IMG/VR virus record: IMGVR_UViG_3300005077_000088
Span: 1-32,953 of that record
Reading direction: 5' to 3' (one strand)
Length of the DNA stretch: 32,953 nt
Source of the DNA: a virus
Taxonomy: Duplodnaviria; Caudoviricetes
Below are positions 11,500 to 31,611 of this stretch, piece after piece. Within the stretch, counting starts at the first letter, position 1, and every line of letters begins with the position of its first letter. Both the position numbers and the translations under genes were made by a program. The notes under the pieces are model-generated. The model searched no databases. It was not told the DNA's origin and saw only the letters and a list, made by a program, of their open reading frames with translations.

Positions 11500-11919
11500 T
11501 TACGTCTTCTTTTCCCCGGGCAGTAATCCTATTAGTTTGAGTATAACCCGGATAAAATCCCAGTCGAACAGGCCATTCGCGATCAGGCCGGCAGCCAGGG
11601 CATAAACCAGGCCAACGTACCAGGTCACTCCAATAAAGATTCCTATTTGTAAAACATATCCGACTGCACTTAACAAAACTGCGATTAACCAGGATAGGTA
11701 CTGCGCCCACTGGCCATTTATATTGACCGCTTTCCTGACGATTTGCGTCACCAAAACAATTCCACCGGCCAGATATGGAATTGAAAGAAACATCGAGAAG
11801 AAATCAGGATCTTCACCGGGTGGACCTGTATCCTGTGATAATGCCGGCGCGATAGCCAGGAACAAAATCAGAATCAGGATAAAATGAAACATTATCGGGA
11901 CGCGCATAAGACCGCGCAT
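11500..11919 (-). CDS. Membrane protein, holin-like (signal/TM plus ~3 TM helices)
   Basis: Hydrophobic N-terminus ending ALS-QD, then three hydrophobic helices; GLIANGLFD motif seen in phage holin-like proteins. Confidence 0.55.
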   Translation of the reverse strand: MRGLMRVPIMFHFILILILFLAIAPALSQDTGPPGEDPDFFSMFLSIPYLAGGIVLVTQIVRKAVNINGQWAQYLSWLIAVLLSAVGYVLQIGIFIGVTWYVGLVYALAAGLIANGLFDWDFIRVILKLIGLLPGEKKT

Positions 11920-11997
11920 ATGGAACTCCTTTCTGTTAGTGCCTTTTTATGGTTCCCACGCTTCGTCCTGAGCATTCGTGATCAGGGCAAGACTTTC

Positions 11998-12273
11998 CTA
12001 ATTTTTGTTTTCAATCCAGAAATTACCGGTGTATTGGTTGGGCTTTGACCTCTTCGCTCTCTCCATGCCGCACAAAGTCCAGGCTTCGTCCTCCGTATCT
12101 GCCTCAACCTTAATCACAAATTTTTCCGGAACTTTCTGCGCATTTTCCTCGAAAAATTCAAAACAAAAAAGACGCCCCGCGGAGGCGGGCGGGACGTCCT
12201 TTGGCTGCTCTTTTTCGGCGGTTGGGGCAGGTATATGTGGATTTGTTTTTTTAGACATTTTCGTATTCTCCAA
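11998..12273 (-). CDS. Hypothetical protein downstream of the capsid gene
   Basis: ORF in operon orientation; the true start may be MSKK. Confidence 0.55.
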   Translation of the reverse strand: MENTKMSKKTNPHIPAPTAEKEQPKDVPPASAGRLFCFEFFEENAQKVPEKFVIKVEADTEDEAWTLCGMERAKRSKPNQYTGNFWIENKN

Positions 12274-12328
12274 ACCTTATCCCTTTGCCCCTTCCCCTGT
12301 TAACAGGGCAAGGGGTTGTGGTTAGGGT
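12272..12328. repeat. REP-like palindrome, family A copy 3
   Basis: CCCCTT.CCCTGT-TA-ACAGGG.AAGGGG hairpin just after the capsid stop codon. Confidence 0.7.
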
Positions 12329-12333
12329 ATTTA

Positions 12334-13290
12334 TTACAACCGGATTCTGCTCAGGCGGCGCACAGCGTCCGTACGTTCCACCGTCAGATTCAGGAAAAAC
12401 TGCAGGCGGCTGATCCCGCGCGGACCTACTTCGCTTTCGTCGAAATCGGTAAAGTAAAAGCCGCTGTTGGTGGAGAAGCAGGCGCCCAGGTCTTCCGCGA
12501 AACGCGCAACAAACATCGAGCAGCAGTCACTATTCGTGCCGTCACTCTCAGTCTGGGGGAGAGCGGTCGTCGGAACTTTGATAATGGGCAGGCCGTCAAA
12601 AGTCTGGATCGCGGTTCCGAAGCTGTTACGGGTTTCGCCGGCTGCGCCGATATTGCGGGCGACCGTGGAAAGCCGCGCCCCGAGGTTGGTATTCACGATC
12701 AGGGCATTCGCGCCGGGAACCTTGGCGATTTCCTTTTCCAGCATTTCCACGAATGTTTTTTCATTAGCGCTGGTTATCTGCAAACTGATCTGTGTATTCA
12801 TGGCTGCCAGTTCGGCCGTGGTAAAACCGAGACGTGCTGTCTGACCGGCAGCTGCCGCATCCAGAATAAACGTTGCAAAACCAAGCATACGGTTGGATGC
12901 GTCGATACCTTGCAGAAGTTCATCCTGGACTTCAATAGCCAGTTTCCCGCCAAGGCCGTTTACGCGGCGGTCGGCAAACAGGCGTAAACCAGCCGGAGCA
13001 ATCCCTACATTGGCGTCTAATTTGCGCACGTCGTCAATGGAAATTTCCCGGCCGTAAAGCGCCAGGTTACGGCTGTTAACGGTCGGTACCTGCGCATCGC
13101 GCTGCAGGGTGGCTCCCTCGGCGCGGGCGGCTGATCCGGCAAATGAATCCTTATCTGCAACCACCATATGCGTGGAAGCATCCAGTTTAAATTCCGCAAA
13201 CTGCAGCAACGGCGCCACAGTAAGCATATTGGACAGCAGGCCTGCGCCGCGTCCGGATAATCTCGAAATCTGGGCAATATTCATTTTCAA
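12334..13290 (-). CDS. Major capsid protein (318 aa)
   Basis: Size, position after the scaffold, RAEG and GFATF motifs, C-terminal AVRRLSRI typical of HK97-fold capsids; strong GAGGAG RBS. Confidence 0.8.
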   Translation of the reverse strand: MKMNIAQISRLSGRGAGLLSNMLTVAPLLQFAEFKLDASTHMVVADKDSFAGSAARAEGATLQRDAQVPTVNSRNLALYGREISIDDVRKLDANVGIAPAGLRLFADRRVNGLGGKLAIEVQDELLQGIDASNRMLGFATFILDAAAAGQTARLGFTTAELAAMNTQISLQITSANEKTFVEMLEKEIAKVPGANALIVNTNLGARLSTVARNIGAAGETRNSFGTAIQTFDGLPIIKVPTTALPQTESDGTNSDCCSMFVARFAEDLGACFSTNSGFYFTDFDESEVGPRGISRLQFFLNLTVERTDAVRRLSRIRL

Positions 13291-13330
13291 CTCCTCTTAA
13301 AACGGTTTATTATTTTGTATTTTGTATTTT

Positions 13331-13879
13331 TTATTCCTTTATCCCTGCAAACTCCTTCACCTTTGCCAGAATCGGACTGCCGGTATCCAGCGGACTTTTA
13401 ATAACCGGTTCATCCTTTTTCTGTTGGTTGTTTTTGTCATCCGCCTTAAAATGAGGATCCGGCTTCATATCCTTTATCAGGATTTCGTAAGCCGCAAAAT
13501 CCGCCCCGGCCAGTTTGCTCATTGCCTCACGTTTGGCTTCAGGAAACAACCCCTGTTTTATGGCGTTATCAACGGCTTCTTTAACCTTCTTTTCCTGCTC
13601 CGCCTTCACCTGCGCCTGTTGTGTGCTGATAATCTTCTCACGGTCTTCGCGCTCTTTGGTCAGCGTAGCCATTAATGCTTTATTCTGCTCGGTCAGCGCA
13701 GCCACTTGTCCCTGCATGGCGTCCATTACACCCTTGAGTTCCGGAGCCAGTTTCGAGGTATCCACCACCGGCGGTTTAGGATCTTCAATAATTTCACTGA
13801 GCTTTGAATCCAGCTCTTTGGCCTTTTCATCATTCCACAATCCCAGGGCCTTAAGTAAAGCAATCAATTTCTCTTTCAC
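13331..13879 (-). CDS. Capsid scaffolding protein (182 aa)
   Basis: Lys/Glu coiled coil; VDNAIKQGLFPEAKRE resembles the Mu gpI/Z scaffold region; GTG start with GGAGG RBS. Confidence 0.7.
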   Translation of the reverse strand: MKEKLIALLKALGLWNDEKAKELDSKLSEIIEDPKPPVVDTSKLAPELKGVMDAMQGQVAALTEQNKALMATLTKEREDREKIISTQQAQVKAEQEKKVKEAVDNAIKQGLFPEAKREAMSKLAGADFAAYEILIKDMKPDPHFKADDKNNQQKKDEPVIKSPLDTGSPILAKVKEFAGIKE

Positions 13880-13886
13880 GTATCCT

Positions 13887-13918
13887 CCATTCCGAGCGCA
13901 GTCGAGGAATCCCCCTGT
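13887..13918. repeat. REP-like palindrome, family B copy
   Basis: CATTCCGAGCGCAGTCGAGGAATCCCCCTGT. Confidence 0.65.
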
Positions 13919-13949
13919 TGCGCATCATGTTTTTTGCATTTCCTACGCC

Positions 13950-14045
13950 AAATTTATCACCTTATATTATTATTTTCTTTACGCATAGCCCATGCGCAAT
14001 TTTTTTTGTTTAACATAATCCTATATTTCAAAGGTGATAAAAGAT
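13950..14045. promoter_or_regulatory. Divergent late control region with 11-bp inverted repeat
   Basis: AT-rich gap between divergent structural operons; TTTATCACCTT (13953-13963) / AAGGTGATAAA (14031-14041). Confidence 0.55.
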
Positions 14046-14053
14046 TTTATTGT

Positions 14054-14108
14054 TACCCCATGCCATTCCCTTCCCCTATGGGTAGGGGAAGGGGCAGGGG
14101 TTAGGGTT
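14054..14108. repeat. REP-like palindrome, family A copy 4
   Basis: CCCTTCCCCTA-TGGG-TAGGGGAAGGG hairpin followed by GCAGGGGTTAGGGT. Confidence 0.75.
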
Positions 14109-14132
14109 ATTTATAATTTGTGAAAGGTCTCT

Positions 14133-14516
14133 ATGCCGTTTGCAGATCTTGAAGCCATTCAGCCGTTTCTGCCCAAGGATCACTTCCTGCTTTCGGAACA
14201 GGATCCGCAGGGCATGACCGAAGCCTTTGCTCAGGCCGATGCCGTTATCGTCGGTTTTACTGCAGCCGAAGCGCCGGAAAGAGCCGCCGATGCTGATCCG
14301 TTATTACGGCATATTGCTGCCAAGCTCGCCGTGCATTTTTTATTAAACCAGAAGCCGGTGGCCAATGAGAACGAGTTAAACTACCGTAAAACACTTTATA
14401 CTGAAGCCATGGATATGCTGGAGGCTATTGCCGGCGGACGCATTACACCGGGCGGATCAACTAAGCCCACTCTGCAAATCCTCTCGGCTGAAAAGCGCCA
14501 TACGGAGATGCCATGA
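14133..14516 (+). CDS. Mu gp36-like (DUF1320) head-tail adaptor
   Basis: AFAQADAVI...LLRHIAAKLAVHFL...YTEAMDMLEAIAGG pattern of the gp36 family. Confidence 0.75.
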   Translation: MPFADLEAIQPFLPKDHFLLSEQDPQGMTEAFAQADAVIVGFTAAEAPERAADADPLLRHIAAKLAVHFLLNQKPVANENELNYRKTLYTEAMDMLEAIAGGRITPGGSTKPTLQILSAEKRHTEMP

Positions 14517-14941
14517 TATCGCCCTCCCTGGTTATTGCCGATGTGATCAGCCGCCTGGAAGACAGCCGCGCCGCCTTAAAAATTACCGGTGTTGAGGAAA
14601 TCAACGAAGACTTTACCAGTAACCTCCGGCCGCCTTACGTTACGGTCCACGCCGATTTCGAAAATGAGGCTGAACAGCTATCCAGCGCCTCGCAGCTCAT
14701 CGAAATCCCGGTGGAAATAAAACTTGTCATATTTACAGCCGGGCACCGCAACCAGTCCGACGCATTCAACCAGGCTTTTCAAATTGCCGCCGGTGCGCTT
14801 AATACGGCCTGTGGAATTTATGAGATATCCGGCGAGACGATCCGCGTCATGCCGCGGCCAAAGCCTTTCGAAATCTGGGCCAAGAAAAAAGATAGTTCGG
14901 TGATCATGGTCAGCTTGTTCTATCTCAACAGGATCCTGTGA
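14513..14941 (+). CDS. Mu gp37-like tail completion/terminator protein
   Basis: Overlaps the gp36-like gene (ATGA); IADVISRLE...PPYVTV pattern. Confidence 0.55.
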   Translation: MISPSLVIADVISRLEDSRAALKITGVEEINEDFTSNLRPPYVTVHADFENEAEQLSSASQLIEIPVEIKLVIFTAGHRNQSDAFNQAFQIAAGALNTACGIYEISGETIRVMPRPKPFEIWAKKKDSSVIMVSLFYLNRIL

Positions 14942-14983
14942 TTGAGGTTTGTGATTTGAAATTTGTAATTTGTGATTTGTGAG
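14942..14983. repeat. Six tandem heptamers, consensus TTGTGAT
   Basis: TTGAGGT TTGTGAT TTGAAAT TTGTAAT TTGTGAT TTGTGAG. Confidence 0.85.
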
Positions 14984-14991
14984 TTATCGTT

Positions 14992-15528
14992 ATGCCTAAA
15001 GCCCTTAAGACATCATTTCATAAACGCCGTGTGATCATGGAACTGCATAATGAAGGCAAAACAACGCCGGAAATTATGCAGATTACCGGCTGCACTTACT
15101 TCCAGGTGTACAACGTGATCCGCCACCGCGTTAAAAAAACACCCGCGGACGATATTCCCCGGCAGGAACGTGATCTGTATGAAACGCCTCAAAGCGATGA
15201 TGAGGACGATGAAGATACTGATGACACCGCGGTCGATATCTCGCAGTTCGAAAATCCCGAAGCTTTTTTTGAGCATCAGATTGCCCTGGTGCTCACCCAG
15301 CTTAACCGTTTACGTCTGGTTCCCGAAAAGCGCGTTAAACTGCTTAAGGATCTCATCATTCTGCAGAAAAATCTTAAGATCGCCCAGGTCGAAGCCTTTG
15401 CCAGGGAGCCTAACGCCATGCTCGTGGTTAACATTATGAAGCGCCTGGCGCCCAAATTAAGCGATGAGGAAATCATCCGCATCCTGGAGGAAGAGCGTGA
15501 AAAAATCGCCCTGTCCAAAAATAAATGA
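14992..15528 (+). CDS. HTH protein, putative terminase small subunit
   Basis: N-terminal HTH (GKTTPEIMQITGCTYFQVYNVI), acidic linker, helical C-terminus; lies upstream of the large terminase. Confidence 0.6.
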   Translation: MPKALKTSFHKRRVIMELHNEGKTTPEIMQITGCTYFQVYNVIRHRVKKTPADDIPRQERDLYETPQSDDEDDEDTDDTAVDISQFENPEAFFEHQIALVLTQLNRLRLVPEKRVKLLKDLIILQKNLKIAQVEAFAREPNAMLVVNIMKRLAPKLSDEEIIRILEEEREKIALSKNK

Positions 15529-15698
15529 TAAGCATGGTTTTTTATTTACCATTGCCGTTTATACGCTCAGATTTACGTTTTAAGAGAGCCGGATTTTCCC
15601 CGGCCAATACCATAAGATTTCCAGGATCGTCAAAATTGAACGAATTTAAACGGAAATTGAACGACTTTAGAAGGATACCGTTAAGTGTTAACGCATAG
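15525..15698 (+). CDS. Possible 57-aa basic ORF (not in the ORF track)
   Basis: ATGA overlap with the upstream stop; open to TAG at 15698; fills the gap before terL. Confidence 0.35.
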   Translation: MISMVFYLPLPFIRSDLRFKRAGFSPANTIRFPGSSKLNEFKRKLNDFRRIPLSVNA

Positions 15699-15702
15699 AA
15701 AT

Positions 15703-15737
15703 AACACTTAACGAACAACGAACAACTAACAACAGAT
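15703..15737. repeat. Tandem heptamers, consensus AACGAAC
   Basis: AACACTT AACGAAC AACGAAC AACTAAC AACAGAT; a similar array lies at 18701-18735. Confidence 0.75.
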
Positions 15738-15744
15738 ATTAGCT

Positions 15745-17397
15745 ATGGTAGAACGCCGAACCACAGACCGCCGTCAGAACTCCACCACCGATATTCTGAT
15801 CGGCCAGATCCATGAGGAATTAAAGCGCCGTCATTTAAAGGATCAGCAGGAAGAGCTGCGCCGCCAGATGCAGTCCGCTCCGCCCTTTACCGTGCACAAG
15901 TCCGGTGATGAGGAACGCGCCAAACGCATTAACCTGTGCAGTAACGATTTCTGGATCTTCGATAAAATTTACTTCCCCCGGGAGAACTATCAGGATTATG
16001 CCCCTCCCGGTAAATTCCATCATGATCTGATCGATCTGGCCGTTCTCCATGACAAAAAAGCCCATGTCGTGGCCGGGCCCAGGTCCCATGCAAAAACAGC
16101 CATGTACAAGAAAGCGCTGATCTGGCTTATTATTTTCGGCAAACGCCGCTACATGCAGATCGCCTCGGAAACCCTGATGACGCCCGTGGCCTTTATCCTG
16201 GATGTCATGGATTATGTCCATCTTAACGAGCGCTTAAACTTCGATTATAAAATTGATTTCGTGGAAGGCAGCCAGGAAAAACTCTTCGTCCGCACCGATC
16301 AGAATCCCAAAGGCACATTCCTGGATATCCTCTCGCAGGATCGTTCCGCCCGCGGCAAAAATCGCGGATTGTTTCTCCGTCCGGATTTTATCTTTATCAC
16401 GGATTTCGAAAACGAAACGTCCAGTCTTACCGAAAACTCGGTAACGCAACGGCTCGGACGGCTTAATGAAATGCGCACATCACTGGTGGATAAAGGCACC
16501 CTTATCTGGGAAGGCAATAACTTCTCCACCAAATGCGCCATGCACCAGCTTTTTAAAGAAGAAGAAGCCGGTATTTTATCGCCCAATATCATCATGCACA
16601 AATATAAAGCCTGGGACGAAACAAGGCCCCCAAAACAGCGCTCGCTTTGGCCGCAAAAATACCCGGCCGCATCCGAGTCCGGATTAAAAGAACAACTTAA
16701 GCCGCGCGATGCCAACGACTGGGCCGGAAACTTCCAGCAGGAACCGCGCGAAGCATCCGGAGATATCTTCCCCATGGCCAACTACCGTGAGGAGGATATC
16801 ACCAACGATATCCGCGCTGTCATTTACTGCGATCCAAACCTGGCGCTTAAAAGCAAAGGCGACACCACCGCCATAGCCTGCCTGGGTTTTTCCGTTACAC
16901 GTATGCGTTATTATATTACGGCCGCACGCTGCAGATCCTACTCCAATTCCAATGAACTGCTCATGGATCTGCTTAATATGTATAACGAGCAGAAACGCCG
17001 CGGCGTGCGCATTTTTACCCTGGGATTCGACGGCAACGTAAACCAGGAAAGCACCTGGACCAATAACCTGTATAATTTCTGCGCCTTGCACAAAACCCTT
17101 TTTCCGCATGTGGAATTTAAACGCTATCATGTGGACGATCTGGTTAAATCTCCCGAGCTGGATTGGAAGTCTGATAAATTCTGTTTCCCGGTCGGCTTCA
17201 GGCAGACTCAGGAAGGCAAGCGCTTTACCGACCAGGTGTTTGATTTTGCCGGTAAAAAAGCCAAAAAGAAGGATGATGCCCCGGACTGCCTGGTGAGTGC
17301 CTATGAACTTTTACACGAGTTTGGCGCTGTGGCCTTGTTGCGGCAATATCAGCGCGTCCAAAGCATTTCCAACAGAAATATTAATGAACGGTTTTAA
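15745..17397 (+). CDS. terL: Terminase large subunit (550 aa)
   Basis: Walker A-like GPRSHAKT, RG...RPDFIFITD Walker B region, nuclease motifs YCDPN..KGDTTA and DDAPD; precedes the portal. Confidence 0.9.
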   Translation: MVERRTTDRRQNSTTDILIGQIHEELKRRHLKDQQEELRRQMQSAPPFTVHKSGDEERAKRINLCSNDFWIFDKIYFPRENYQDYAPPGKFHHDLIDLAVLHDKKAHVVAGPRSHAKTAMYKKALIWLIIFGKRRYMQIASETLMTPVAFILDVMDYVHLNERLNFDYKIDFVEGSQEKLFVRTDQNPKGTFLDILSQDRSARGKNRGLFLRPDFIFITDFENETSSLTENSVTQRLGRLNEMRTSLVDKGTLIWEGNNFSTKCAMHQLFKEEEAGILSPNIIMHKYKAWDETRPPKQRSLWPQKYPAASESGLKEQLKPRDANDWAGNFQQEPREASGDIFPMANYREEDITNDIRAVIYCDPNLALKSKGDTTAIACLGFSVTRMRYYITAARCRSYSNSNELLMDLLNMYNEQKRRGVRIFTLGFDGNVNQESTWTNNLYNFCALHKTLFPHVEFKRYHVDDLVKSPELDWKSDKFCFPVGFRQTQEGKRFTDQVFDFAGKKAKKKDDAPDCLVSAYELLHEFGAVALLRQYQRVQSISNRNINERF

Positions 17398-17457
17398 CCA
17401 TCCCCGGCCCTCCCTGTGAGCAGGGAGGGTGTTCCGATTTATCGGAACGGGTGGGTA
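17397..17457. repeat. REP-like palindrome, family A copy 5
   Basis: CCCTCCCTG-TGAG-CAGGGAGGG followed by GTTCCGAT-TT-ATCGGAAC and GGGTGGGT. Confidence 0.8.
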
Positions 17458-17476
17458 TTTAACAAAAGGTTAAGAT

Positions 17477-18664
17477 ATGTACAACAATCCCCATCTTAAG
17501 AACAGCGTCTATCCCACTATTGCCCAAATTAAGCGCTATCTGCGCAGCGCCAATGAAACCGACCGCAGCGTCCGGGATGTGCGCCCGCTTATGTCCTTTC
17601 TGCAGCGTCTGGCCGCAGATCAGTATTTTTACGGCCTTATTCAGACACGCCGCCTGGCCATCACCGGCTATCCCTGGGAACTGACATGGCCCAAAGATTT
17701 TCAGCCATCCAAAGATGATGAGAAGCGGTTGGTGGCTATGCACGACCGCTTTGTAAACTGCAATGCCGCGCGTCTGTTCGATATCGCCATTAACGGCATC
17801 CTGTTTGGGCTCGGCGGAGCGCGTTTAGTCTGGAAAAACGTTAAAGGCGAGAGTCTGTTGGAATTCATAAATCCATACGATCTCACCGAGCTGGATATCG
17901 ACAGCAGCCAGAATATCTTTTATTTCCTGGAAGACCGCGGCGGTCAGGTTCAGTATCAGGATCTCGATCCGGAAGTCAATTTCCTGATTCATTACAATCC
18001 GCTTTACGGCATCAGCAATAATTTTGTGGGCAGCGTGGCCCGCATCAATTCCATTTACGTGGTGCTTAAATATTTTTCCCGTTTCGACTGGTCCAAGTTT
18101 AACGAGAAGTTTGGCCAGCCGCTTATTTTCGGGCAATATGGCCTGGGCGCCGATCCCAATGATGTAGCTGCCTTACTGGCCGATCTCGAAAAGCTGGGCA
18201 GCGACGGTTACGCCGCCATTCCGGAGAACGTTAAGCTCTCCCTGCTGGAAGCGATGAAGTCCGGATCCGTCGATACCTATAACGGATTCATCAGCACGGT
18301 TAACAGTGAAATGGCTATATCCGTGCTGGGTCAAAACCTCACCACCCAAGTTGAGGAAGGCAGCCGCGCCGCCGCTCAGGTACACAACCAGGTGCGCAGC
18401 GATATTCTCTTTGCCGATCTGCTGTTTGTAGAACAGGCCGTAAACGCCCAGTACATGCAGCGCGACTACCGCCTTAATTACAGCGGGGGAGGCGTTGCGC
18501 CTGTGTTTCGCTTTATTACCGACGAAGCGGAAGATTATGAAAAGAACGCCCGCATCTTAAGCGAAGTAAAGAGCATCCAGGGCGCAGAAATCCCGCTCCG
18601 TAAAAACGAAGTCTATGATAAAATCGGCTATTCCATACCCGATGAAGGTGAAGAAGTTATTTAG
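17477..18664 (+). CDS. Portal protein, Mu gp29/DUF935-like
   Basis: DWSKFNEKFGQP..FGQY, EMAISVLGQNLTT...GSRAAAQVHNQVR motifs. Confidence 0.9.
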   Translation: MYNNPHLKNSVYPTIAQIKRYLRSANETDRSVRDVRPLMSFLQRLAADQYFYGLIQTRRLAITGYPWELTWPKDFQPSKDDEKRLVAMHDRFVNCNAARLFDIAINGILFGLGGARLVWKNVKGESLLEFINPYDLTELDIDSSQNIFYFLEDRGGQVQYQDLDPEVNFLIHYNPLYGISNNFVGSVARINSIYVVLKYFSRFDWSKFNEKFGQPLIFGQYGLGADPNDVAALLADLEKLGSDGYAAIPENVKLSLLEAMKSGSVDTYNGFISTVNSEMAISVLGQNLTTQVEEGSRAAAQVHNQVRSDILFADLLFVEQAVNAQYMQRDYRLNYSGGGVAPVFRFITDEAEDYEKNARILSEVKSIQGAEIPLRKNEVYDKIGYSIPDEGEEVI

Positions 18665-18739
18665 GGAACGTTAAAAGTTCAGCTGAAGAAGAAGCTCAAT
18701 CAACGGACAACGCATCACGAATAACGAACAACAAAAACT

Positions 18740-19324
18740 ATGGCCGATCCAAATACCATTATACCCGCCATTCAAAAAGACCTGGATAACCTGGTCGAGA
18801 ACGTTCTGTTGAAACGACTGGCCAATGGCGCCATTGCCCTGATCCGCAAACGTACTCTGCAGGGCGAATTTATCGCAGGTGATCATGATTATTCTACTAA
18901 GCCTTTTGCCATGCCCGTCGGCGGATTAACAAAGATGTTGCAAAACCGCATTATCGCAACGGCAAAAGGCGGCAGGGGCCGCGCCCCTGATCCCAATTTC
19001 CAGCTCTTCACTTCCAAAAGCGGCCATATATGGGTAGTAGTCAAACAGGGATATAAAAAGATCAGGGAACTGGCCGGTAAACAGAGCGACCATGTAACCA
19101 TGACCTGGACCGGCCGCATGATGCGCAATATGGGGATTGTGAATATTGACCATAGCCGGGCGGAAATCGGCTTTACCAGCGGCGAAGAAGAACAGAAAGC
19201 CGTCTGGCATAATCTGCTCGGCGCCGGTAAAAGCCGCCGCATTCACAAGTTTATGTACCTCACCGAAAGAGAGATTGAAGACCTTTTAAAAGAGAGTTTA
19301 AAAGATATTTCGATACGCACTTAA
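18740..19324 (+). CDS. Virion morphogenesis protein, Mu gpG-like
   Basis: TWTGRMMRNM...AEIGF....KAVWHN..G....R.HKFMYL. Confidence 0.7.
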   Translation: MADPNTIIPAIQKDLDNLVENVLLKRLANGAIALIRKRTLQGEFIAGDHDYSTKPFAMPVGGLTKMLQNRIIATAKGGRGRAPDPNFQLFTSKSGHIWVVVKQGYKKIRELAGKQSDHVTMTWTGRMMRNMGIVNIDHSRAEIGFTSGEEEQKAVWHNLLGAGKSRRIHKFMYLTEREIEDLLKESLKDISIRT

Positions 19325-19466: not shown

Positions 19467-21020
19467 ATGGATCAACAATACCAAAACAAATTATATTATG
19501 GTGATAATCTAACCATTCTGCAGGATCATATTGCATCAGAAAGCATTGATTTGATTTATCTTGACCCGCCGTTTAACAGCAAACGGGATTACAATCTGCT
19601 TTTTAAAACTCCTAAAGGACATGAGTCCGATGCTCAGATAACTGCCTTTGAAGATACCTGGCACTGGGGTGAACAGGCCGAACGCGAATTCACCGGGCTT
19701 TTTAAACAAGCCAATACGGCTGTGGCTGAAATGATAAATTCCCTGCGCCGCTTTTTAAAAGAAAGCGACATGATGGCTTATCTGGTTATGATGGCCAACC
19801 GCCTGCTGGAAATGCACCGGGTTTTAAAACCAACCGGCAGCCTGTACTTGCATTGTGATCCGACATCCAGCCATTATCTAAAAATCGTTCTGGATACTAT
19901 TTTTTGTGCAGAGAATTTCAGAAATGAGTTGATTTGGAAACGAGCGACGTCAGGAAGTAGTAAGGCTGTAGCCCAAAGATTTGGTTCAGATCACGATGTT
20001 ATTTTGTATTTTTCAAAGAATTCTAATGTTATGTTTAACAAAATATATCTGCCCTATCCAGCATACGAAATAGAAAAGAGATTTAAACGCAGTGATGATC
20101 ATGGCAGATACAAAGACGCAGAATTAGCAACATACTCTGCCGATACTCTTGAAAAACTCAAGGCTGAAGGAAAGTTAATCATCAATCCAAGCGGTAAATA
20201 TCGCTATAAAATTTACTTGGATGAAATAAAAGGCGTATTAGCTGATGATGTTTGGACTGACATATTTCCAATAAATTCTCAGGCGCAAGAACGTCTTGGT
20301 TATCCAACTCAAAAACCGCTTGCCTTATTGGAGCGCATTATCCAGGCCAGCAGCAATCCCGGCGATATCGTGATGGATCCATTTTGTGGCTGCGGTACAG
20401 CCGTTCACGCCGCCCAGAAACTTAACCGCCGCTGGATAGGCATCGATATTACCCACCTGGCAATAAGTCTTATTGAAAAACGCATGAAGGATGCTTTTAG
20501 CAATATCAGCTTTGAAGTTCACGGCACGCCCAGGGATTTTGACGGGGCGAAAAACCTGGCTGAACGGGATAAATATCAGTTTCAATGGTGGGCCTGCTCC
20601 CTGGTCAATGCCCAGCCTTACCAGGGCAAAAAGAAAGGTGCGGATAGCGGTATTGATGGTTTGGTTTTTTTTCAGGATACTGCTAATGAAGCAAAAAAAG
20701 TTATCGTATCGGTCAAAGGCGGAACGCACGTTAATGTAACAATGGTCAAGGATTTAATTGCCACCGTTGAACGGGAAAAGGCTGCCATTGGCCTATTTAT
20801 AACACTTGCAGAACCAACCCGGCCTATGACAAAAGAAGCTGTAAGCGCCGGTTTTTACCACTCCGAAGGGTGGAATAAAGATTTCCCCAAAATACAGATT
20901 TTAACTGTTGAAAACCTAATGTCGGGCGCGTCTGCGCAATTACCACCTGCGAATATCACCTTTAAAAAGGCGGAAAAAAATTTAACTGAAGGCGGAAAAC
21001 AAAAGATTATTGAATTTTAA
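19467..21020 (+). CDS. Beta-class N6A/N4C DNA methyltransferase with C-terminal Mrr-like PD-(D/E)XK domain (517 aa)
   Basis: LIYLDPPF (motif IV), GYPTQKP, MDPFCGCGT (motif I); C-terminal GADSGIDG...VSVKGG. Confidence 0.9.
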   Translation: MDQQYQNKLYYGDNLTILQDHIASESIDLIYLDPPFNSKRDYNLLFKTPKGHESDAQITAFEDTWHWGEQAEREFTGLFKQANTAVAEMINSLRRFLKESDMMAYLVMMANRLLEMHRVLKPTGSLYLHCDPTSSHYLKIVLDTIFCAENFRNELIWKRATSGSSKAVAQRFGSDHDVILYFSKNSNVMFNKIYLPYPAYEIEKRFKRSDDHGRYKDAELATYSADTLEKLKAEGKLIINPSGKYRYKIYLDEIKGVLADDVWTDIFPINSQAQERLGYPTQKPLALLERIIQASSNPGDIVMDPFCGCGTAVHAAQKLNRRWIGIDITHLAISLIEKRMKDAFSNISFEVHGTPRDFDGAKNLAERDKYQFQWWACSLVNAQPYQGKKKGADSGIDGLVFFQDTANEAKKVIVSVKGGTHVNVTMVKDLIATVEREKAAIGLFITLAEPTRPMTKEAVSAGFYHSEGWNKDFPKIQILTVENLMSGASAQLPPANITFKKAEKNLTEGGKQKIIEF

Positions 21021-21079
21021 AGTAACTTATTCTTGAATTCTACTAAAGCGGACATTTATATATCAATTTTTTATAAAGG

Positions 21080-21925
21080 ATGCGAATAATGATCGAATTT
21101 CAACTTTTTCGAATAAAAGTGTATCCTGTGCACCAACGTAATTTGTTTATTAATGATATGACACGTCCTGAGATTCTTAAATCTGTAATACAATCTTTAC
21201 CTGAATTTGAATTAAGAACAGGTTCAGTGTGGCATATTGGAAATATCTCAAATATTGATCAAAATGCTTTATATTTTAGACTTGGTAGAACTACAACATC
21301 CACTGTGGAATTGTACCAGGATCATAACTTTTTAGAACGTCCATTTGAATTAGCACCATATACTCATGTGATTTTTGATATTGAATTAGAGATCGCGGCA
21401 ATAGCGAATAAAAGTAGGCTTTCTCCAAAAGTTAGAGGCATTGCTAATTCATTTGTTGAACTGTTGAACAAATCACAAGAAGCAGTGAGGATTAATGCTT
21501 CTTTTGAGGTCGGTGAAATATATGACCCACAAACATTTATTGAGCAATTACATGTTGCACATGCAATCTCCAAATTTTGGGTTACTTTTTCAAGACCAAA
21601 TCCCTGGGACATCGATCAGGAATTCGTAGCTCCGATGCAAAACTACTTGACCCAAACTAATGCAAAGGAAGGAAAAACTGAAATAAAAGGAGAAATACTT
21701 AATCCTGAACGTTTACAAGAAATTAGTCGTTCAGCAGCCGCTACAGGAAATAATGCTGGTGCGGTCTTACAATTAACATCAGATGGTCAGAAAATTAAAA
21801 AAAATTTGAGACAAAATCCTATTTTAATCCAACAAGAAAATATAGCAGACCAGGACGATAAAAGAACATTATTAGACCGAATTCGTAATTTGTATCAAAG
21901 AATTCGTGGGAGGAATGTTAATTGA
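21080..21925 (+). CDS. AT-rich soluble moron protein (281 aa), DUF4747/RexA-like candidate
   Basis: AT-rich gene overlapping a multi-TM partner; FRLGR and VTFSRPNP segments. Family call tentative. Confidence 0.5.
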   Translation: MRIMIEFQLFRIKVYPVHQRNLFINDMTRPEILKSVIQSLPEFELRTGSVWHIGNISNIDQNALYFRLGRTTTSTVELYQDHNFLERPFELAPYTHVIFDIELEIAAIANKSRLSPKVRGIANSFVELLNKSQEAVRINASFEVGEIYDPQTFIEQLHVAHAISKFWVTFSRPNPWDIDQEFVAPMQNYLTQTNAKEGKTEIKGEILNPERLQEISRSAAATGNNAGAVLQLTSDGQKIKKNLRQNPILIQQENIADQDDKRTLLDRIRNLYQRIRGRNVN

Positions 21926-22509
21926 TCGAAAAAACAGATTTTATGAAATTTTGGACCTGGTTTTTTAAAGGAAGTGGAAACCGTTCAGGATTTAGAAAGT
22001 TATTCGATAGATGGTTTTTCTTTCATGTCATTATTGGATTTATATTTTCATGTTTTATACCAGTTGATTTGAACACCGCAGCGAATTCAGTATTATTACC
22101 CCTTGTCGGGATTTTAGTTGGATTAACATTTGCATGGGCAGGAAATGCGCAAGCTCTGTTGCAATCTCCAGAGATTAGTGAATTTGCAGAATATAGTAAA
22201 GGCGGCTTTGTTGATTATGTCTTCACTTATCAGTTAGCAATACTTGTAATTTTAATAACCATTGTAATTTGGGCTTTGGCAGGTCTTGAAGTATTTGATA
22301 AAGTGTGGCCAAAAGATCGTTATAGCACCGAATATTTTATAACATCACTTATTTTATATTTAATATTAAGTTTAACACTGAGAGAATGTTGGCATGTGGT
22401 TCTTGGTGCTCAATTCATGATAATGGCTCAAAGAAAAATTAAAAAGTTAAAGTATATCAAGAAAAACAAATTAAGGATGCCTTATGGAAGAAAATCGAGT
22501 CGAAATTAA
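21922..22509 (+). CDS. AT-rich 4-TM membrane protein (195 aa)
   Basis: Four hydrophobic helices; TTG start overlapping the upstream stop; basic C-terminus. Confidence 0.75.
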   Translation: MIEKTDFMKFWTWFFKGSGNRSGFRKLFDRWFFFHVIIGFIFSCFIPVDLNTAANSVLLPLVGILVGLTFAWAGNAQALLQSPEISEFAEYSKGGFVDYVFTYQLAILVILITIVIWALAGLEVFDKVWPKDRYSTEYFITSLILYLILSLTLRECWHVVLGAQFMIMAQRKIKKLKYIKKNKLRMPYGRKSSRN

Positions 22510-22537: not shown

Positions 22538-22687
22538 TCAATCCAGCCCAAAGCTCAGCATTAACAATATGGTGCACATCATCAGCGTCGGTATATCGCC
22601 GAACCATATGGCCAGTATTCCGCCGACAAACAAAAGGAAACGCGCCATCCACAGGCAGATCAGCAAAAACAGGATCAGGTCTCTCAA
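22538..22687 (-). CDS. 49-aa two-TM membrane peptide (not in the ORF track)
   Basis: TTG start overlapping the upstream TGA, GGAGGA RBS; MRDLILFLLICLWMARFLLFVGGILAIWFGDIPTLMMCTILLMLSFGLD. Confidence 0.65.
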   Translation of the reverse strand: MRDLILFLLICLWMARFLLFVGGILAIWFGDIPTLMMCTILLMLSFGLD

Positions 22688-22878
22688 AGCAGGTCCTCCG
22701 GATTCACTTCGCTCTTAACTACTTTTACAATACGAACCTCCGTATATTCAACACTTAGTGGGTTGAGCAGATAGTCTTTGGCCTGTTGCAGTGTGTCGCA
22801 TAACGCCAGTACATTCCACTGTCCCAGTCTTTTCGCCTCCACCCAGTACCGCGTAATTAATATTTTTTCCTTTTTCAT
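22684..22878 (-). CDS. Hypothetical protein (64 aa)
   Basis: Tightly packed in the leftward operon with an AGGA RBS. Confidence 0.65.
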   Translation of the reverse strand: MKKEKILITRYWVEAKRLGQWNVLALCDTLQQAKDYLLNPLSVEYTEVRIVKVVKSEVNPEDLL

Positions 22879-22881
22879 CTT

Positions 22882-23157
22882 TCATTCCTTCCTCTCGAAT
22901 AGGATCTCGTTTTCCTGTTCCGGATGCTTTCTAACATGGATAAATTGATCCGTTAAAATATCCACCGGAATGCCATCCTCACCCGGGAATGCCTTGCAAT
23001 AAATTGTGCCGGTATAATGTCTGCAATTCTCACATTGGCCGGCCCCAAACATATCCACACCATATTTTTTAGTTAATATTGCCCAGGCTGGTGTTACTTC
23101 CCCCGGTTTTTCATTTTTATCTTTTGCAGGCAATTTTTTATAATCCGATAAAGCCAT
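22882..23157 (-). CDS. Small Cys/His protein (CxxCxH...CKAFP..GIP..I...H), candidate immunity protein
   Basis: TAATG overlap with the MuF-like gene; clustered potential metal ligands. Confidence 0.6.
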   Translation of the reverse strand: MALSDYKKLPAKDKNEKPGEVTPAWAILTKKYGVDMFGAGQCENCRHYTGTIYCKAFPGEDGIPVDILTDQFIHVRKHPEQENEILFERKE

Positions 23158-24344
23158 TATTTATCCTTTCTAAGTCTCATAAATATAATATCCGGACGAC
23201 CAAAACGTTCATAATTCCACCCTTCCGGTGCATAACGGTCGTCCCATTTTACACGCTTATATTCATCGAAACCAAATTTACGGTAAAATCCCGGCAGATT
23301 GGTATCAAAACAATCCAGGGTTTCCGCGCCGTTCTTTATCGCATCGATAACAGTAGCAGGGCCCTGGTGTGCGCCTGTGGCCGAAAATACATTAATTAAA
23401 TCCTTATCTCTTGTAAGTCCATAGCCGCTTTTTTCATTATCGGAAAGATAGAAACTTACACCTAAATTGGCTAATTCTTCTTCATTATAAAAAGATATCA
23501 TTTTTTGTAAATCCGACGGCAGCCCCTTACTAATAGATATGTAGAACTTGTCAGGATTTACCTTAATAAAGTTCACAGCATTCTGTTTTCCGCTCTGTAT
23601 TTTGATATTTTTTATTTGAGATTTATCCTCTCCCACCACCGGCGTCCACCAATGGGTGCAGTTAAACCCGCCGCAGCTCGTCTTTACGGAGAGTCCCTGC
23701 CCGTTATTCAGCAGGGCAATCTGCTTTTCAGTGTATACATTTCCAAGGTGTTTTTTGCAGAATGGCCGGCTGTTGGGATGCAGTACTCCGTCATATTTAT
23801 ATGCGGTTATGCCCGCTGCCTGAGCGTTCTCAAACATATAGGCATTATCGAACATAGCCACCGATGTATTGGCCAGGGTAGCCGCGTCCGGAACAGAGCG
23901 CTTGATCAGCCGCCGGCGCAGGGTTTCAAAACCATAGTCGGCCCGGGCCGCCCGCTGCATTTCTTCCATCAGGATCCGGCGGTGTTTTTTATTGATCTGG
24001 TCGAAATCCCATTTTATCCCGTATGCTGCCAATATTTTCTCGTAATCCCCATCCTGTAAGGGCACAACATTTTGTGCCCCTGCAAAATAATTATCCCATA
24101 CCTCGCCGATTTGCCGCATGGTATCTTTTACCAGGATATTCATCCGGATTTGTTCCTGGGCCGGAAATTTAAAATGCTTCAGGACTATAGATGCCAGCTC
24201 ATCCATATCCTGGATATTATATTTCTGTTTAAGGTAAATAATCTCCCGGATAATGGCTTTTTTATAAGCCTCTAAATCAGCGTTAAACTGCTTTTCAAAA
24301 TCGCTTTTAATAGTTAATATTTTGGATCGGTAGTTGGCTAACAT
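23157..24344 (-). CDS. MuF/minor-capsid-like protein with C-terminal GNAT-like domain (395 aa)
   Basis: YKYDG.....SRPFC...G.VYT and CGGFNCTHWWTPV MuF-type motifs; C-terminal GAETLDCFDTNLPGFYRKFGF acetyltransferase-like motif. Confidence 0.75.
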   Translation of the reverse strand: MLANYRSKILTIKSDFEKQFNADLEAYKKAIIREIIYLKQKYNIQDMDELASIVLKHFKFPAQEQIRMNILVKDTMRQIGEVWDNYFAGAQNVVPLQDGDYEKILAAYGIKWDFDQINKKHRRILMEEMQRAARADYGFETLRRRLIKRSVPDAATLANTSVAMFDNAYMFENAQAAGITAYKYDGVLHPNSRPFCKKHLGNVYTEKQIALLNNGQGLSVKTSCGGFNCTHWWTPVVGEDKSQIKNIKIQSGKQNAVNFIKVNPDKFYISISKGLPSDLQKMISFYNEEELANLGVSFYLSDNEKSGYGLTRDKDLINVFSATGAHQGPATVIDAIKNGAETLDCFDTNLPGFYRKFGFDEYKRVKWDDRYAPEGWNYERFGRPDIIFMRLRKDK

Positions 24345-24350
24345 AATTTC

Positions 24351-24632
24351 TTATTTTCTTTTTTCATTTTTCATTGCTGTCACCCCGAGTCCCGATTCGG
24401 TCGGGAAGGGGTCAGCTTCAAACATATCTGTTTGTTTGGTCAATAAAAGCCGTTTCAGATACCGTTCTCCCGTAGGCCGTGCGATAACCTCCGCAATCTC
24501 TCCGCAATTACCGCAACGATAGCCATAGCGCCGCGACCGCATATAAAAATGATCGTCGCCATGATAAAATCCGCTCGGTTCTTTCCCTTTCGGAACATCC
24601 CTGTAATCCTTACCGCAAAATGGACAAATCAC
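24351..24632 (-). CDS. Zn-ribbon hypothetical protein (93 aa)
   Basis: CPFC...CGNC; contains an in-frame palindrome at 24379-24413. Confidence 0.65.
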   Translation of the reverse strand: MICPFCGKDYRDVPKGKEPSGFYHGDDHFYMRSRRYGYRCGNCGEIAEVIARPTGERYLKRLLLTKQTDMFEADPFPTESGLGVTAMKNEKRK

Positions 24633-24718: not shown

Positions 24719-25174
24719 TTATTTTTTATTTTCTTTTGGCCCAATCGCCTCTATCCCCCGGATTACACAGCTAACTTGTCTGCGCGGCAGCCATTCCAGC
24801 CGGTCAACTTTGACGATACGCCTTAAGAAGCTGTTCAGAGAAGCCGGCGTTTTTACCCGCACATGCGGATGGTTGTACCACAGATGCCTGATCAGTCCGA
24901 TCTGTTTAGGCGTGGCGTAGTAATCGCATATCGCCGGGTTAAATCTGGCCTTGTTTTTCCCGTTGCTCAAAACCGGATGCCCGCCTTCTTTAGCTGGTTC
25001 GTGTTTAAAGCCCAGCGACTCAAAAAACTGCATCAGCTCCTGTACCTGGGAAGTGTTAAGATCTTTGCTGGACTCCACCCCAAATCCGGAAAGCATAGCC
25101 CGGTAATCTTCTTCCTTAATACCGAGCCTGGTTTTCGCCGTGTGGATTAAAGCCGTTTGACGTTTATTAGCCAT
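24719..25174 (-). CDS. gemA: Mu GemA/gp16-like regulatory protein (DUF1018)
   Basis: LIHTAKTRLGIKEEDYRAML..GVESSKDL...GF and ATPKQIGLIRHLW...LNSFLRR. Confidence 0.85.
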   Translation of the reverse strand: MANKRQTALIHTAKTRLGIKEEDYRAMLSGFGVESSKDLNTSQVQELMQFFESLGFKHEPAKEGGHPVLSNGKNKARFNPAICDYYATPKQIGLIRHLWYNHPHVRVKTPASLNSFLRRIVKVDRLEWLPRRQVSCVIRGIEAIGPKENKK

Positions 25175-28919: not shown

Positions 28920-31106
28920 TTACTCCCCCATCGCTTTTTTTTTAAGCCAGGCCTCCCGTTCGTACTCAAATAAAAAGATGGGATTATCACCAGATTCCAA
29001 TTGCTTTTTTTTCCGCTCCGCCATGCGCATTTCCGCGTCCCGTGCTAAAATGCTAAACACACTCTCTTCCTTCTCATCCCCAGTCTCGAGCTTGTCGAGA
29101 GACCCCCTGTTTGTGGTGGAAGGCATGTCCCCTTCTTCATTTTGTATTTTTTCTTTTGTCACCCTGAGTCCCGATTTATCGGGAAAGGGTCTTCCTATCC
29201 CCGCATTCAGAAGCGCCTTCGCCTGGCTAACCGTCTTCTTCTTCAATGACCGGTGCGCGGCAATCAGCCGCGAAAGCTGTTCCTGGTCGTCTTCAGACCC
29301 CAGTATCGAAGCCGCCGGATGCGTCATGCCCGCGCGTTTCGCGGCGCAGATCAGCTCGTCATCCTCATCATAAACCAATGCCGTATCCGGATCCCCGAAA
29401 TCCACCCGCAGGGTAACCGTTCCCGTCAAACCATACAGCGCCTCATCCCAGTACCATTCATTATTATAGCGCACGCCGTTGCGGCCTATGGAAGCTTTGC
29501 GCTGCGCCAGCATCAGGTAATTCAGTTCGTTCCGGCCAATCAGCCGCTGCTCAAAATCGTCCGCATGTTTTACCCGCTCCAGGCTCTCCGCAAAAATGTC
29601 CAGCGGAGCCCGGCCCTTGTAAAATCCGCCCTGGTATGGACGCTGAATATACTCCGCGATCCACTCTTTAATAAGGTTGGTAATAGTGAACAGGTCCGGC
29701 GCCGTGCCCGAGGTAAGACGTTCATGAGCGGTCTTGTGCAGTTTTTCATTGCGCATCATGCGCGCCGGTTTATGGCTTATATCGATGCCGGTGTAAGAAG
29801 GCAGGCGCCGCTCCAGCTCCGCGAAAGAGCCAAAAAAGCGTTCGATGGTTTTGGATTGGCCATGGTAGGGTTCCGCAAATACGGTTTTAATGCCCAGGCG
29901 CTCAAACAGCCCGCTAATGCCGCTGCCCTCCAGGCTGGAAGTAAAGTAAGTTGCGCCAAAAGCCTTGCCGTTATCAATGTAGACCGCCCGCGGCTTAAAA
30001 CCCATCGTTAAAATCGCCTTGCGCAGAGCCGAGGCAATCACCAGCACATTCTCTGTGGGCATAATATCAAATCCCGTCGGACATCCGCTCTTAAAATCGC
30101 AGAAGCCGATCAGCGTCATGCGCTTGGGCTTGCCCGTAAAAGGATCTATCGCCTCAAAATTAAGCGTATGCCCGTCCGCCACCAGAATATCGCCGCTCTC
30201 AATCTTGTCCCGGTCACGCTGAATATAAGGCATGGCCAAATCATTCAGCGCTTTCTCACCGTCGCGCATGGCGATATATAAATCGTGGTTCTCGCGGATC
30301 CAGGACTGGATGAACCGCCGGTAAGTAATCTCGCTCTGGCCGCAGGCGATGTTCTGCGCCCGCATCATCTGCTGCGCCCGCCTAATCGCCTCCTGCAAAG
30401 GCAGCCGGTTGGGTGAGAGCACCACCTTAAGCAGAATGTCCGCCTGCGCGGCCGATATACTGCTCATACGAGTGGGATGGTAGTTATCCCGCAGCGCGTC
30501 CGGATTGCGCTCCGCCTTCTCCCATAAAAGCCGCCAGCGTTCCGCCGTCTGGTAAGAAACCAGGCCCAGCCGCGCCAGCAGATCCGGAAAGGCCCGCCCG
30601 TTGTTATAATGTTCAAGAAAATGGTGTTTAGCCTCCACCTTGCCGCCCCAGTTCGTCTCCGAGGCCTGCGTGTACAGCCGCAAAAAATCATGCCTGGCCA
30701 GCGCCTTCTCCGTCGGCGCCGCGTCTGATACTTTGTCATTTCGATCCCGATTTTTATCGGGAGAGAAATCCCCTGTTCCGGCGCTATTCCAATACCTTAC
30801 CTGCGCTTCAATGGGCAAAGAATTTAGCAAAATCTCATAACGCTCCCCGCCATTGCCGCGAACCTTGCGCACCGTGTATTTCCCGGCCTTGCACCGCTCC
30901 TGAGCGGTTCTTTGCGGAATATTCAAAAGTTGCGCACCTTTTTTAACCTCAATCCACACCTCGCTTAAAGCTAACTGCTTATTTTTTAACCCGTTTGCTA
31001 AGGTGCGCAATTCTTGCGTACCTTGATCAAATTCTTGCGTACCTTGATCAAATTCTTGCGTACCTTTATCTGACAAGGTAGGCAATATATTTTCCAGTTC
31101 AGGCAT
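28920..31106 (-). CDS. MuA-like DDE transposase (~728 aa; start revised to ATG at 31106)
   Basis: N-terminal Mu DNA-binding-like region (GNGGERYEILLNSLP), DDE residues in VADGH, YIDNG and KTIERFF, Mu C-terminal domain; GAGGAG RBS before 31106. Confidence 0.95.
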   Translation of the reverse strand: MPELENILPTLSDKGTQEFDQGTQEFDQGTQELRTLANGLKNKQLALSEVWIEVKKGAQLLNIPQRTAQERCKAGKYTVRKVRGNGGERYEILLNSLPIEAQVRYWNSAGTGDFSPDKNRDRNDKVSDAAPTEKALARHDFLRLYTQASETNWGGKVEAKHHFLEHYNNGRAFPDLLARLGLVSYQTAERWRLLWEKAERNPDALRDNYHPTRMSSISAAQADILLKVVLSPNRLPLQEAIRRAQQMMRAQNIACGQSEITYRRFIQSWIRENHDLYIAMRDGEKALNDLAMPYIQRDRDKIESGDILVADGHTLNFEAIDPFTGKPKRMTLIGFCDFKSGCPTGFDIMPTENVLVIASALRKAILTMGFKPRAVYIDNGKAFGATYFTSSLEGSGISGLFERLGIKTVFAEPYHGQSKTIERFFGSFAELERRLPSYTGIDISHKPARMMRNEKLHKTAHERLTSGTAPDLFTITNLIKEWIAEYIQRPYQGGFYKGRAPLDIFAESLERVKHADDFEQRLIGRNELNYLMLAQRKASIGRNGVRYNNEWYWDEALYGLTGTVTLRVDFGDPDTALVYDEDDELICAAKRAGMTHPAASILGSEDDQEQLSRLIAAHRSLKKKTVSQAKALLNAGIGRPFPDKSGLRVTKEKIQNEEGDMPSTTNRGSLDKLETGDEKEESVFSILARDAEMRMAERKKKQLESGDNPIFLFEYEREAWLKKKAMGE
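31009..31070. repeat. ~3x 21-bp in-frame tandem repeat in the transposase N-terminus
   Basis: AATTCTTGCGTACCTTGATCA x2 plus a near copy, encoding DQGTQEF. Confidence 0.9.
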
Positions 31107-31611
31107 TCTGTGGCTCCTCAAGTCGATCGATCAGGCTGGTCTGTTTGTGGTCGGTTTCAGCCTTGCGCCGCATTTCCATAAAATGGGCGATATGGCCGTC
31201 AAGCTGCTGGTCAAATTCCGCCTTAAGCGTGCGGGTGGGTTCCTTTAAAAGAAGGGCAAAAGTTTTTAACAGCAGGGCATATTCCAGGTTAAAATCCGCG
31301 ATCTCAATTTCGCGCTCGGCCTTGCCCTGGCCCGTTCGCGGCTCGCGGCTAAAGTAACCGCCGCACAACCGGCATATCGTCTGGATAATGTAATCTTTCC
31401 TGCTGCATTTAATTAGCTGTACCAGGCGCTGCAGGTGCTTCAAAAAACCGTCGCCGCTTTCGCCTTCAATGGCCATACGGTAAACCAGGTTTGCGCTAAT
31501 GCCGAGCTGGTCCGCCAGGTCGTCCACCGTGTAATCATCGCAGTGGATCGTCTTGCGGATGCTTTCGATCAGGGAATAGGTATTTTCACGCCTCATAAAT
31601 GCCTCGCTCAA
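31099..31611 (-). CDS. Phage CII-like regulatory protein
   Basis: TVDDLADQLGISANLVYR HTH; IIQTICRLCGGYF motif of the P2/186-type CII family. Confidence 0.6.
   Translation of the reverse strand: MSEAFMRRENTYSLIESIRKTIHCDDYTVDDLADQLGISANLVYRMAIEGESGDGFLKHLQRLVQLIKCSRKDYIIQTICRLCGGYFSREPRTGQGKAEREIEIADFNLEYALLLKTFALLLKEPTRTLKAEFDQQLDGHIAHFMEMRRKAETDHKQTSLIDRLEEPQNA

Follow-up and report, generated by a model that had tools for sequence, protein, structure and literature searches.

The window, by which we mean the whole 33-kb stretch of DNA analysed here, is a Mu-like phage record whose main features are listed in Table 1. At the far end of its early-strand run, the genes follow one another in the order GemA, zinc-ribbon protein, 395-aa protein, 91-aa protein and 64-aa ORF. 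The 395-aa and 91-aa ORFs have one base in common at a TAATG overlap, and the GC content is 0.468 in the N-terminal part of the 395-aa gene, 0.373 in its C-terminal part and 0.413 in the small gene. A sequence-only reading of this DNA had described both ORFs and their motifs, the overlap, a MuF domain ending near position 23630 and an AT-richer C-terminus, and all of these are confirmed; it did not contain two further points developed below, namely that the core of the small protein is shared across unrelated enzymes and that muf lies at the end of the early strand, opposite the portal.

Table 1 Features of the window and of the locus under study (aa, residues of the encoded protein)
Feature	Positions	Strand	Remark
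Mu-like phage record	whole window		33 kb
Transposase, MuB-like ATPase, Gam, HD phosphatase, GemA	28920-31121 (first) to 24719-25174 (last)	-	
Terminase and Mu-type portal	15745-18664	+	
Protease and major head protein	near 12334-13879	-	
DNA methyltransferase cargo gene	19467-21020	+	
Zinc-ribbon gene just upstream of muf	24351..24632	-	conserved in phage clade
395-aa MuF-GNAT ORF	23157-24344	-	
MuF-type (minor head protein) carrier domain	23631..24344	-	aa 1-238
C-terminal GNAT-like domain (phrog_2563)	23160..23579	-	aa ~256-395; Y354 and W376 in 149/149 representatives
91-aa partner gene	22882..23157	-	translationally coupled via TAATG overlap
GNAT-cognate helix of partner	23044..23094	-	aa 22-38 (T22, W25, L28, Y32, F37, G38)
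Cys3His metal-binding-type core of partner	22894..23034	-	aa 42-88 (C42, C45, C54, H74)
64-aa ORF after partner gene	22684-22878	-	

The late genes diverge near position 14000 (window 11500-19324), with protease and major head protein running leftward and head-tail adaptor, terminase and portal running rightward, while a cargo region lies between muf and the portal operon opposite it; this rearranged Mu head module is common to relatives L008-L016 and L297-L306. The zinc-ribbon gene is also found upstream of muf in L008, L009, L011-L015, L299, L301 and L304, and could be a late-gene regulator, which would explain the expression of muf from the early strand. Scans of the locus for sigma-70-like promoters and terminators stayed at chance level. 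The cargo (19467-22509, + strand) comprises a DNA methyltransferase fused to a restriction-endonuclease-like domain, followed by an AT-rich pair made up of a 281-aa protein (phrog_10040) and a 195-aa membrane protein; the pair has no PADLOC match and is possibly an unlisted defence pair. The 64-aa ORF has no family match, and a similar-looking small gene lies upstream of muf, on the opposite strand, in L009 and L305.

The N-terminal part of the 395-aa protein is assigned to the MuF superfamily through its homologues. The window protein itself matches TIGR01641 at E 1e-4 and 22.6 bits, below the curated cut-off of 39.65, and has no Pfam match at E<=0.01, while homologues 38-51% identical to it match PF04233 (P0005, E 1.8e-6) and PF06152 (P0003, E 1.7e-6). 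Searches with the full protein gave 21 matches, of which one is the protein itself, 19 cover the N-terminal 238 aa and one covers only the C-terminal domain, and the conserved MuF-type region ends at residue ~238 (~23631). Within 30 aa of the conserved motif, 15 of the 19 homologues (P0003-P0021) stop; the other four carry different domains, namely CdiA_C (P0005, E 5e-11), an HExxH zincin (P0020) and an unnamed domain (P0003, P0011). The genomic loci add an ADP-ribosyltransferase (ART) allele (L304, E 3e-20) and further zincin alleles. Each extended allele (CdiA_C, zincin, ART) has its own small downstream gene, and the question raised by the sequence-only reading, whether MuF homologues exchange the C-terminal domain together with the downstream gene, is thereby answered in the affirmative. 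These sequence comparisons show a polymorphic carrier with interchangeable C-terminal domains, as had been proposed. Among the 26 loci of the MuF clade that were scanned, only two, L032 (zincin) and L304 (ART), have a Cys gene of the kind that follows the window protein, and in both the MuF in front of it is an extended one. The same MuF clade also bears two unnamed C-terminal domains (P0003/P0011, L301:5691-6251; and L297:1720-2178), which are candidate new effectors without Pfam names. Ten relatives lie in GTDB genomes of Bacteroidota, Ignavibacteria or, once, Zoogloea.

In the close relatives that were viewed, muf likewise sits at the end of the transposase-MuB-Gam-GemA strand, facing the portal operon, a position that calls for real caution about packaging. 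Together with the cargo genes that adjoin muf, it would suit a protein that is not packaged in this phage clade and is instead expressed early or from the prophage, as a toxin-antitoxin-like or superinfection-blocking switch inside the lysogen. We consider this very unlikely: no second muf gene was found among the 42 window ORFs scanned, short enzyme-free MuF versions occupy the same genome position, as would suit a structural role, and the closest GNAT-partner pairs (L209, L210) lie directly after the portal.

The window protein's C-terminal domain matches phrog_2563 (E 8e-20), and 2937 protein clusters match it at E<=0.001. Y354 and W376 are invariant in 149/149 representatives, G358-F359 is conserved, and so is G328 in a motif-A-like loop (144/149 representatives). 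An Atlas predicted model resembles three named GNAT clusters (TM 0.67-0.69, ~130 aa) and a 128-member MuF cluster (TM 0.78); a single-sequence fold of the domain reached a pLDDT of only 36.7. Support from sequence is weak. No Pfam GNAT model matches the window domain or any of 88 aligned relatives, and hhalign against 26 cellular GNAT sequences gave a weak match (7.7%, E 0.0045) with motifs A and B in register, 20 column shuffles reaching at most 4.4%. Against the PDB, both matches obtained with a 7-row profile (A2) are GNATs (E 0.097 and 0.2), whereas an 88-row profile (A7) placed CueR first (E 0.006) and a GNAT at E 0.68. The CueR match was rejected as chance, a helical protein having been aligned to a strand-rich segment. 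The predicted structure makes it very probable that the domain has a GNAT fold, in agreement with the motif-based proposal of the sequence-only reading, and the domain is treated below as a putative enzyme.

Members of this GNAT-like family are found well beyond MuF proteins. Among cultured viruses, 203 records match the domain, 172 of them from Streptomyces phages, 22 from Pseudomonas phages and a few from others including archaeal viruses. In the 172 Streptomyces records the family member is a stand-alone gene, present in most of the Arquatrovirinae-type Streptomyces phage records hit. Six cultured contexts were opened. In the T7-like Pseudomonas phage UNO-SLW1, the family member is the first gene (gp01, L003:752-1231), and it is a solo gene near the genome end in Streptomyces phage Marav and a solo gene in HATV-2. 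In DC33 it is embedded in a 3125-aa protein with LPD22 and ART-PolyVal domains. It closes the minor capsid protein of the Microbacterium phage Barnstormer (gp4), with a scaffold gene next, and that of a Methanobrevibacter virus, where a cysteine-poor 89-aa gene follows. Environmental loci show the domain fused to MuF1, MuF2, VG15, HK97-type portal and Mu portal proteins, and it also occurs within polyvalent proteins that have ART-PolyVal. Head-protein fusions, polyvalent proteins and the first gene are places of entry-acting proteins. The first-gene slot of T7 and T3 is used by anti-restriction genes, and UNO-SLW1 gp01 offers a ready test case for an anti-defence role of the family. Word-based homologue searches for longer GNAT forms, limited in sensitivity, returned only the window's own protein.

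The 91-aa partner belongs to a large family with no named counterpart in the PHROG, Pfam, NCBIfam or PADLOC libraries; phrog_8178 matched at E 2.5. Scanning DNA for a degenerate form of CxAFPxGIP gave 120 loci, 107 of which contain the strict CxxC...CxAFPxGIP pattern, and the strict DNA motif is estimated to match about 1600 stored IMG/VR stretches. Against a family profile built without it, the window protein scores 49.3 bits, the best of 500 shuffles reaching 7.1. A word-based search with the 91-aa protein, tblastn of two Cys proteins against cultured phages and single-protein locus scans returned no relatives because of their limited sensitivity; the degenerate motif scan did find the family. 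An alignment-based fold of the protein has a pLDDT of 78, and about 90 over the core. The fold search that had been suggested for it yielded no match at Z>=2 among 48161 chains and, with Foldseek, 2hip at E 5.6, and it did recover three unnamed phage look-alikes. C42, C45, C54 and H74 are the likely metal ligands, the fourth position being His in 83 of 93 family members and Cys in ten. Because the resemblance to high-potential iron-sulfur proteins (HiPIP) covers the first three cysteines only, Zn and an Fe-S cluster are both candidates for the metal.

The genes upstream of this family place its core behind several kinds of enzyme. In a set of 75 upstream genes, drawn from 80 loci with long flanks after duplicates were dropped, 41 have a MuF Pfam domain (PF04233 or PF06152) and many others are cut by the flank; similar small proteins thus do lie behind other MuF effector domains, as the sequence-only reading had suggested. 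The C-terminal labels (n=69) comprise 44 zincins, identified by HExxH, 9 JAB-like domains, 8 ARTs, identified by Pfam or by eye, and 8 others. The JAB-like label was given by motif, without Pfam support, and follows an HxH...S..D pattern that we take to mark such domains. None of 77 upstream genes from the motif scan carries the GNAT-like domain of the window's family, and the idea that the Cys core is specific to GNAT was rejected. The occurrence of the core behind effectors of several unrelated folds (zincin, ART, JAB-like and others) shows by sequence a shared scaffold of their partners, and no GNAT-specific antidote.

In most of the zincin-linked partners (L088-L167) the N-terminus is very short, 4-10 residues preceding the first Cys, as would be fitting if it plugged the peptidase site. 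The protein at L124:2-1702 has a Cys-family gene behind it and ends in what, judged by eye, looks like a second GNAT-type domain of a different kind, without a Pfam match. The Cys-family proteins of L104, L117, L205, L293 and L369 either contain the core twice or are joined to additional domains, in L293 a kinase-like one.

What links the partner to the GNAT-like domain is a short helix N-terminal to the Cys core. From 244 of 245 GNAT loci we obtained 132 distinct domains, 54 of which end their protein: 16 are followed by a Cys gene, four have the helix as a tail in cis, five have behind them a small gene that encodes the helix and no Cys core (one recognized by score, four by eye), and for 29, including gp4 of the cultured phage Barnstormer, no partner was detected. 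It was by eye that the helix was first noticed, forming a tail in 11 of the 149 representatives. When these 11 cis tails alone were used to train a profile, it ranked all five GNAT-linked Cys proteins tested above all 93 others, with 7.1 bits for the window protein, the lowest of the five, 10.9-36.2 bits for the other four and 0.0 for the best of the 93. The helix motif is present in 15 of 16 GNAT-linked Cys copies, as against 1 of 92 others. Its arrangement varies: GNAT, helix and Cys core are united in a single chain in P0027, the helix stands alone on a 52-aa ORF in L327, and in L212 a portal-MuF fusion has it in the enzyme chain.

A quick tree was built from 89 rows: all 54 terminal domains, 3 of the remaining, internal or open domains that are partner-linked, 25 of the 75 others of this kind, the window, and 6 references. 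In it the window belongs to a group of 22 rows (SH-aLRT 92, not starred), and all 22 of these rows, which are kin, have the helix, 15 of them on a Cys protein, six in cis and one alone. Three more Cys-linked rows lie in a neighbouring group. Partner identity also follows the enzyme. Nearest neighbours among the Cys proteins agree in enzyme label in 57 of 75 cases, a figure inflated by kinship, compared with a mean of 29 and a maximum of 45 in 5000 shuffles. In L210, two Cys genes come after the gene for a MuF-GNAT-JAB-like protein, the first having a JAB-linked protein as its nearest neighbour and the second a GNAT-linked one; when only the cores are compared, the second Cys gene loses its GNAT label. 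The ART-linked partner of L304, from the window's own phage clade, is nearest to the ART-linked partner of another phage, which indicates that partners travel with the enzyme and not with the carrier. Taken together, the alignments and profiles show a partner composed of a shared core and an enzyme-specific N-terminal segment, with a GNAT-specific helix that is interchangeable between cis and trans. The metal-binding antidote or partner proposed in the sequence-only reading is thus GNAT-specific in its helix and generic in its Cys/His core.

The interchange of the helix between cis and trans makes it quite likely that it touches the GNAT-like domain directly, and the nature of that contact is where readings divide. 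The helix might activate the enzyme or recruit its substrate instead of acting as a brake, so that the small protein would complete or aim the acetyltransferase and the Cys3His core would be a stabilizing or sensing carrier. Its presence in the enzyme chain in six of the 22 subclade members and in the 11 representatives with tails, its absence from no member of the subclade, and the union of all three parts in P0027 favour such a role. The helix is missing from other branches of the family (29 of the 54 terminal copies, and the polyvalent forms), which argues that the fold does not need it; one core with different N-terminal segments behind unrelated enzymes is the pattern of an inhibitor; and small genes behind MuF effectors are inhibitors in the case of Bxa, according to the accessible text of PMC11699363. 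We therefore regard an activating helix as unlikely.

The sequence-only reading had instead pictured an injected acetyltransferase toxin with its antidote. On such a reading, an antibacterial MuF polymorphic toxin with a cognate immunity protein would kill or arrest competitors, for example by acetylating aminoacyl-tRNA in the manner of AtaT/TacT. The architecture is that of MuF toxins as laid out in the available part of PMC5576092, sister alleles end in CdiA_C and ART toxin domains, and the partner is enzyme-specific. No toxin model in Pfam, NCBIfam or PADLOC matched, however, and the family's occurrence as a solo, early gene in lytic phages, as a stand-alone gene in the Streptomyces records, as a T7-like first gene and in polyvalent proteins points to host-takeover contexts, while many terminal copies have no detectable partner. 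The antitoxin partners of AtaT/TacT are ribbon-helix-helix repressors, unlike the Cys3His protein encoded downstream here; searches of Pfam, NCBIfam, PADLOC and PDB sequences gave no AtaT/TacT match to the GNAT-like domain. A dedicated toxin is accordingly rather improbable, and the tRNA-acetylating version finds no support in any library.

The most likely reading, to which we give an even chance, is a head-loaded, host-modifying acetyltransferase that is kept in check by the partner helix. The MuF carrier would bear the putative enzyme as its interchangeable C-terminal domain, and its packaging and injection, suggested by the fusion of the family to five kinds of head protein, are reasonably probable for this phage. 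The precedent of MuF toxins and their immunity proteins makes it on balance probable that the helix contact is inhibitory, probably over the acceptor site. On the model of phiKMV Rac, the enzyme would act on a host protein to serve takeover or counter-defence, and such toxicity as it may have would be a side effect contained by the partner. The cis forms are the main difficulty for this inhibitory scheme: with the helix in the enzyme chain (6 of 22 rows, including L212), a pure inhibitor would be injected too and would need release, so that either a same-chain inhibitor is cut or displaced after entry or the helix is activating.

More broadly, and tentatively, as a possibility short of an even chance, the Cys3His scaffold may be a general inhibitor chassis for head-packaged enzymes (zincin, ART, JAB-like, kinase and GNAT), with specificity supplied by a swappable N-terminal plug; for GNAT, this plug would be a portable 17-residue helix, which could sit on the scaffold and work in trans, stand by itself on a mini-gene or form an autoinhibitory tail in cis. 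If so, the N-terminal segment would be a readable code for the enzyme that each partner blocks, and the GNAT would be a widespread injected anti-host enzyme of temperate, T7-like and archaeal viruses. MuF effectors are common, but tests have covered few of them, and most of the small partners are unclassified. The locus brings to light a partner family that is large and unnamed, together with a short and portable helix, specific to its enzyme, that is testable with a peptide, and it ties a GNAT-like family of nearly 3000 protein clusters, among them the first gene of some T7-like Pseudomonas phages, to head-loaded delivery, making the host target a direct experimental question.

The partner core invites comparison with HiPIP (PF01355; HPIP_like, PF18524), with which its first three cysteines and the residues following them align (hhalign 50.6%, E 1.6e-4, 29 columns; controls 1.9% and 3.3%). 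A Pfam scan of 93 Cys-family members at E<=1 matched HPIP_like in four and HIPIP in two, at best 0.027. Membership was rejected, the HiPIP C-terminal motif being absent, the fourth ligand mostly His (His74 in the window) and no fold match having been obtained.

MuF toxins with small immunity genes are already known, as the portions consulted of Jamet et al. 2017 (PMC5576092) and Zhang et al. 2012 (PMC3482391) describe, and share with the window a MuF-type N-terminus, a variable C-terminus, a small coupled downstream gene and a temperate phage. The accessible text of the former reports a small ORF after 89.4% of MuF toxin genes and gives the position after the portal as the usual place of muf. 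Here, too, a small downstream gene changes with the domain; the C-terminal domain is GNAT-like, however, the status of toxin would be by analogy, and muf does not stand beside the portal in the window and its clade, as it does in L209 and L210. The words GNAT and acetyltransferase are absent from the main texts of both papers, as far as these were available. In the literature covered, mostly non-subscription, we found no description of a MuF-GNAT with a partner, of the Cys3His family or of the helix, which the supplements of PMC5512222, PMC5576092 and PMC3482391 may list; the accessible part of PMC9503650 mentions none of them.

Close parallels are the pairing of Bxa and Bsi/BAH and that of Apk2 and its immunity proteins (PMC11699363, in the text available), in which a MuF-fused enzyme and a small binding partner are encoded alongside each other and Bsi blocks Bxa; binding in the window pair would be by analogy. 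Bxa is an ADP-ribosyltransferase and Apk2 an alarmone synthetase, in contrast to the GNAT-like domain here, and Bsi is described in that text as globular and alpha-helical with no mention of metal, which sets it apart from the Cys3His partner by description only. For the enzyme itself, the consulted part of Iyer et al. 2017 (PMC5512222) reports ART-neighbouring GNATs in phage polyvalent proteins, with predicted protein substrates, and makes no mention of MuF or portal fusions or of a partner protein. The first family of that study lies beside ART in polyvalent proteins and has solo members in Firmicutes and Actinobacteria; the window's family is found likewise in L002, L235 and the Streptomyces phages, and, compared by context only, may be the same. 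Finally, Rac of phage phiKMV acetylates the host RNA polymerase, according to the available text of PMC7824862 and PMC7552054. Compared by description and not by sequence, Rac is a solo gene whereas the window GNAT is a head-protein fusion, and it offers, by analogy, a working model for the window enzyme: a phage GNAT redirecting the cell through modification of a host protein.
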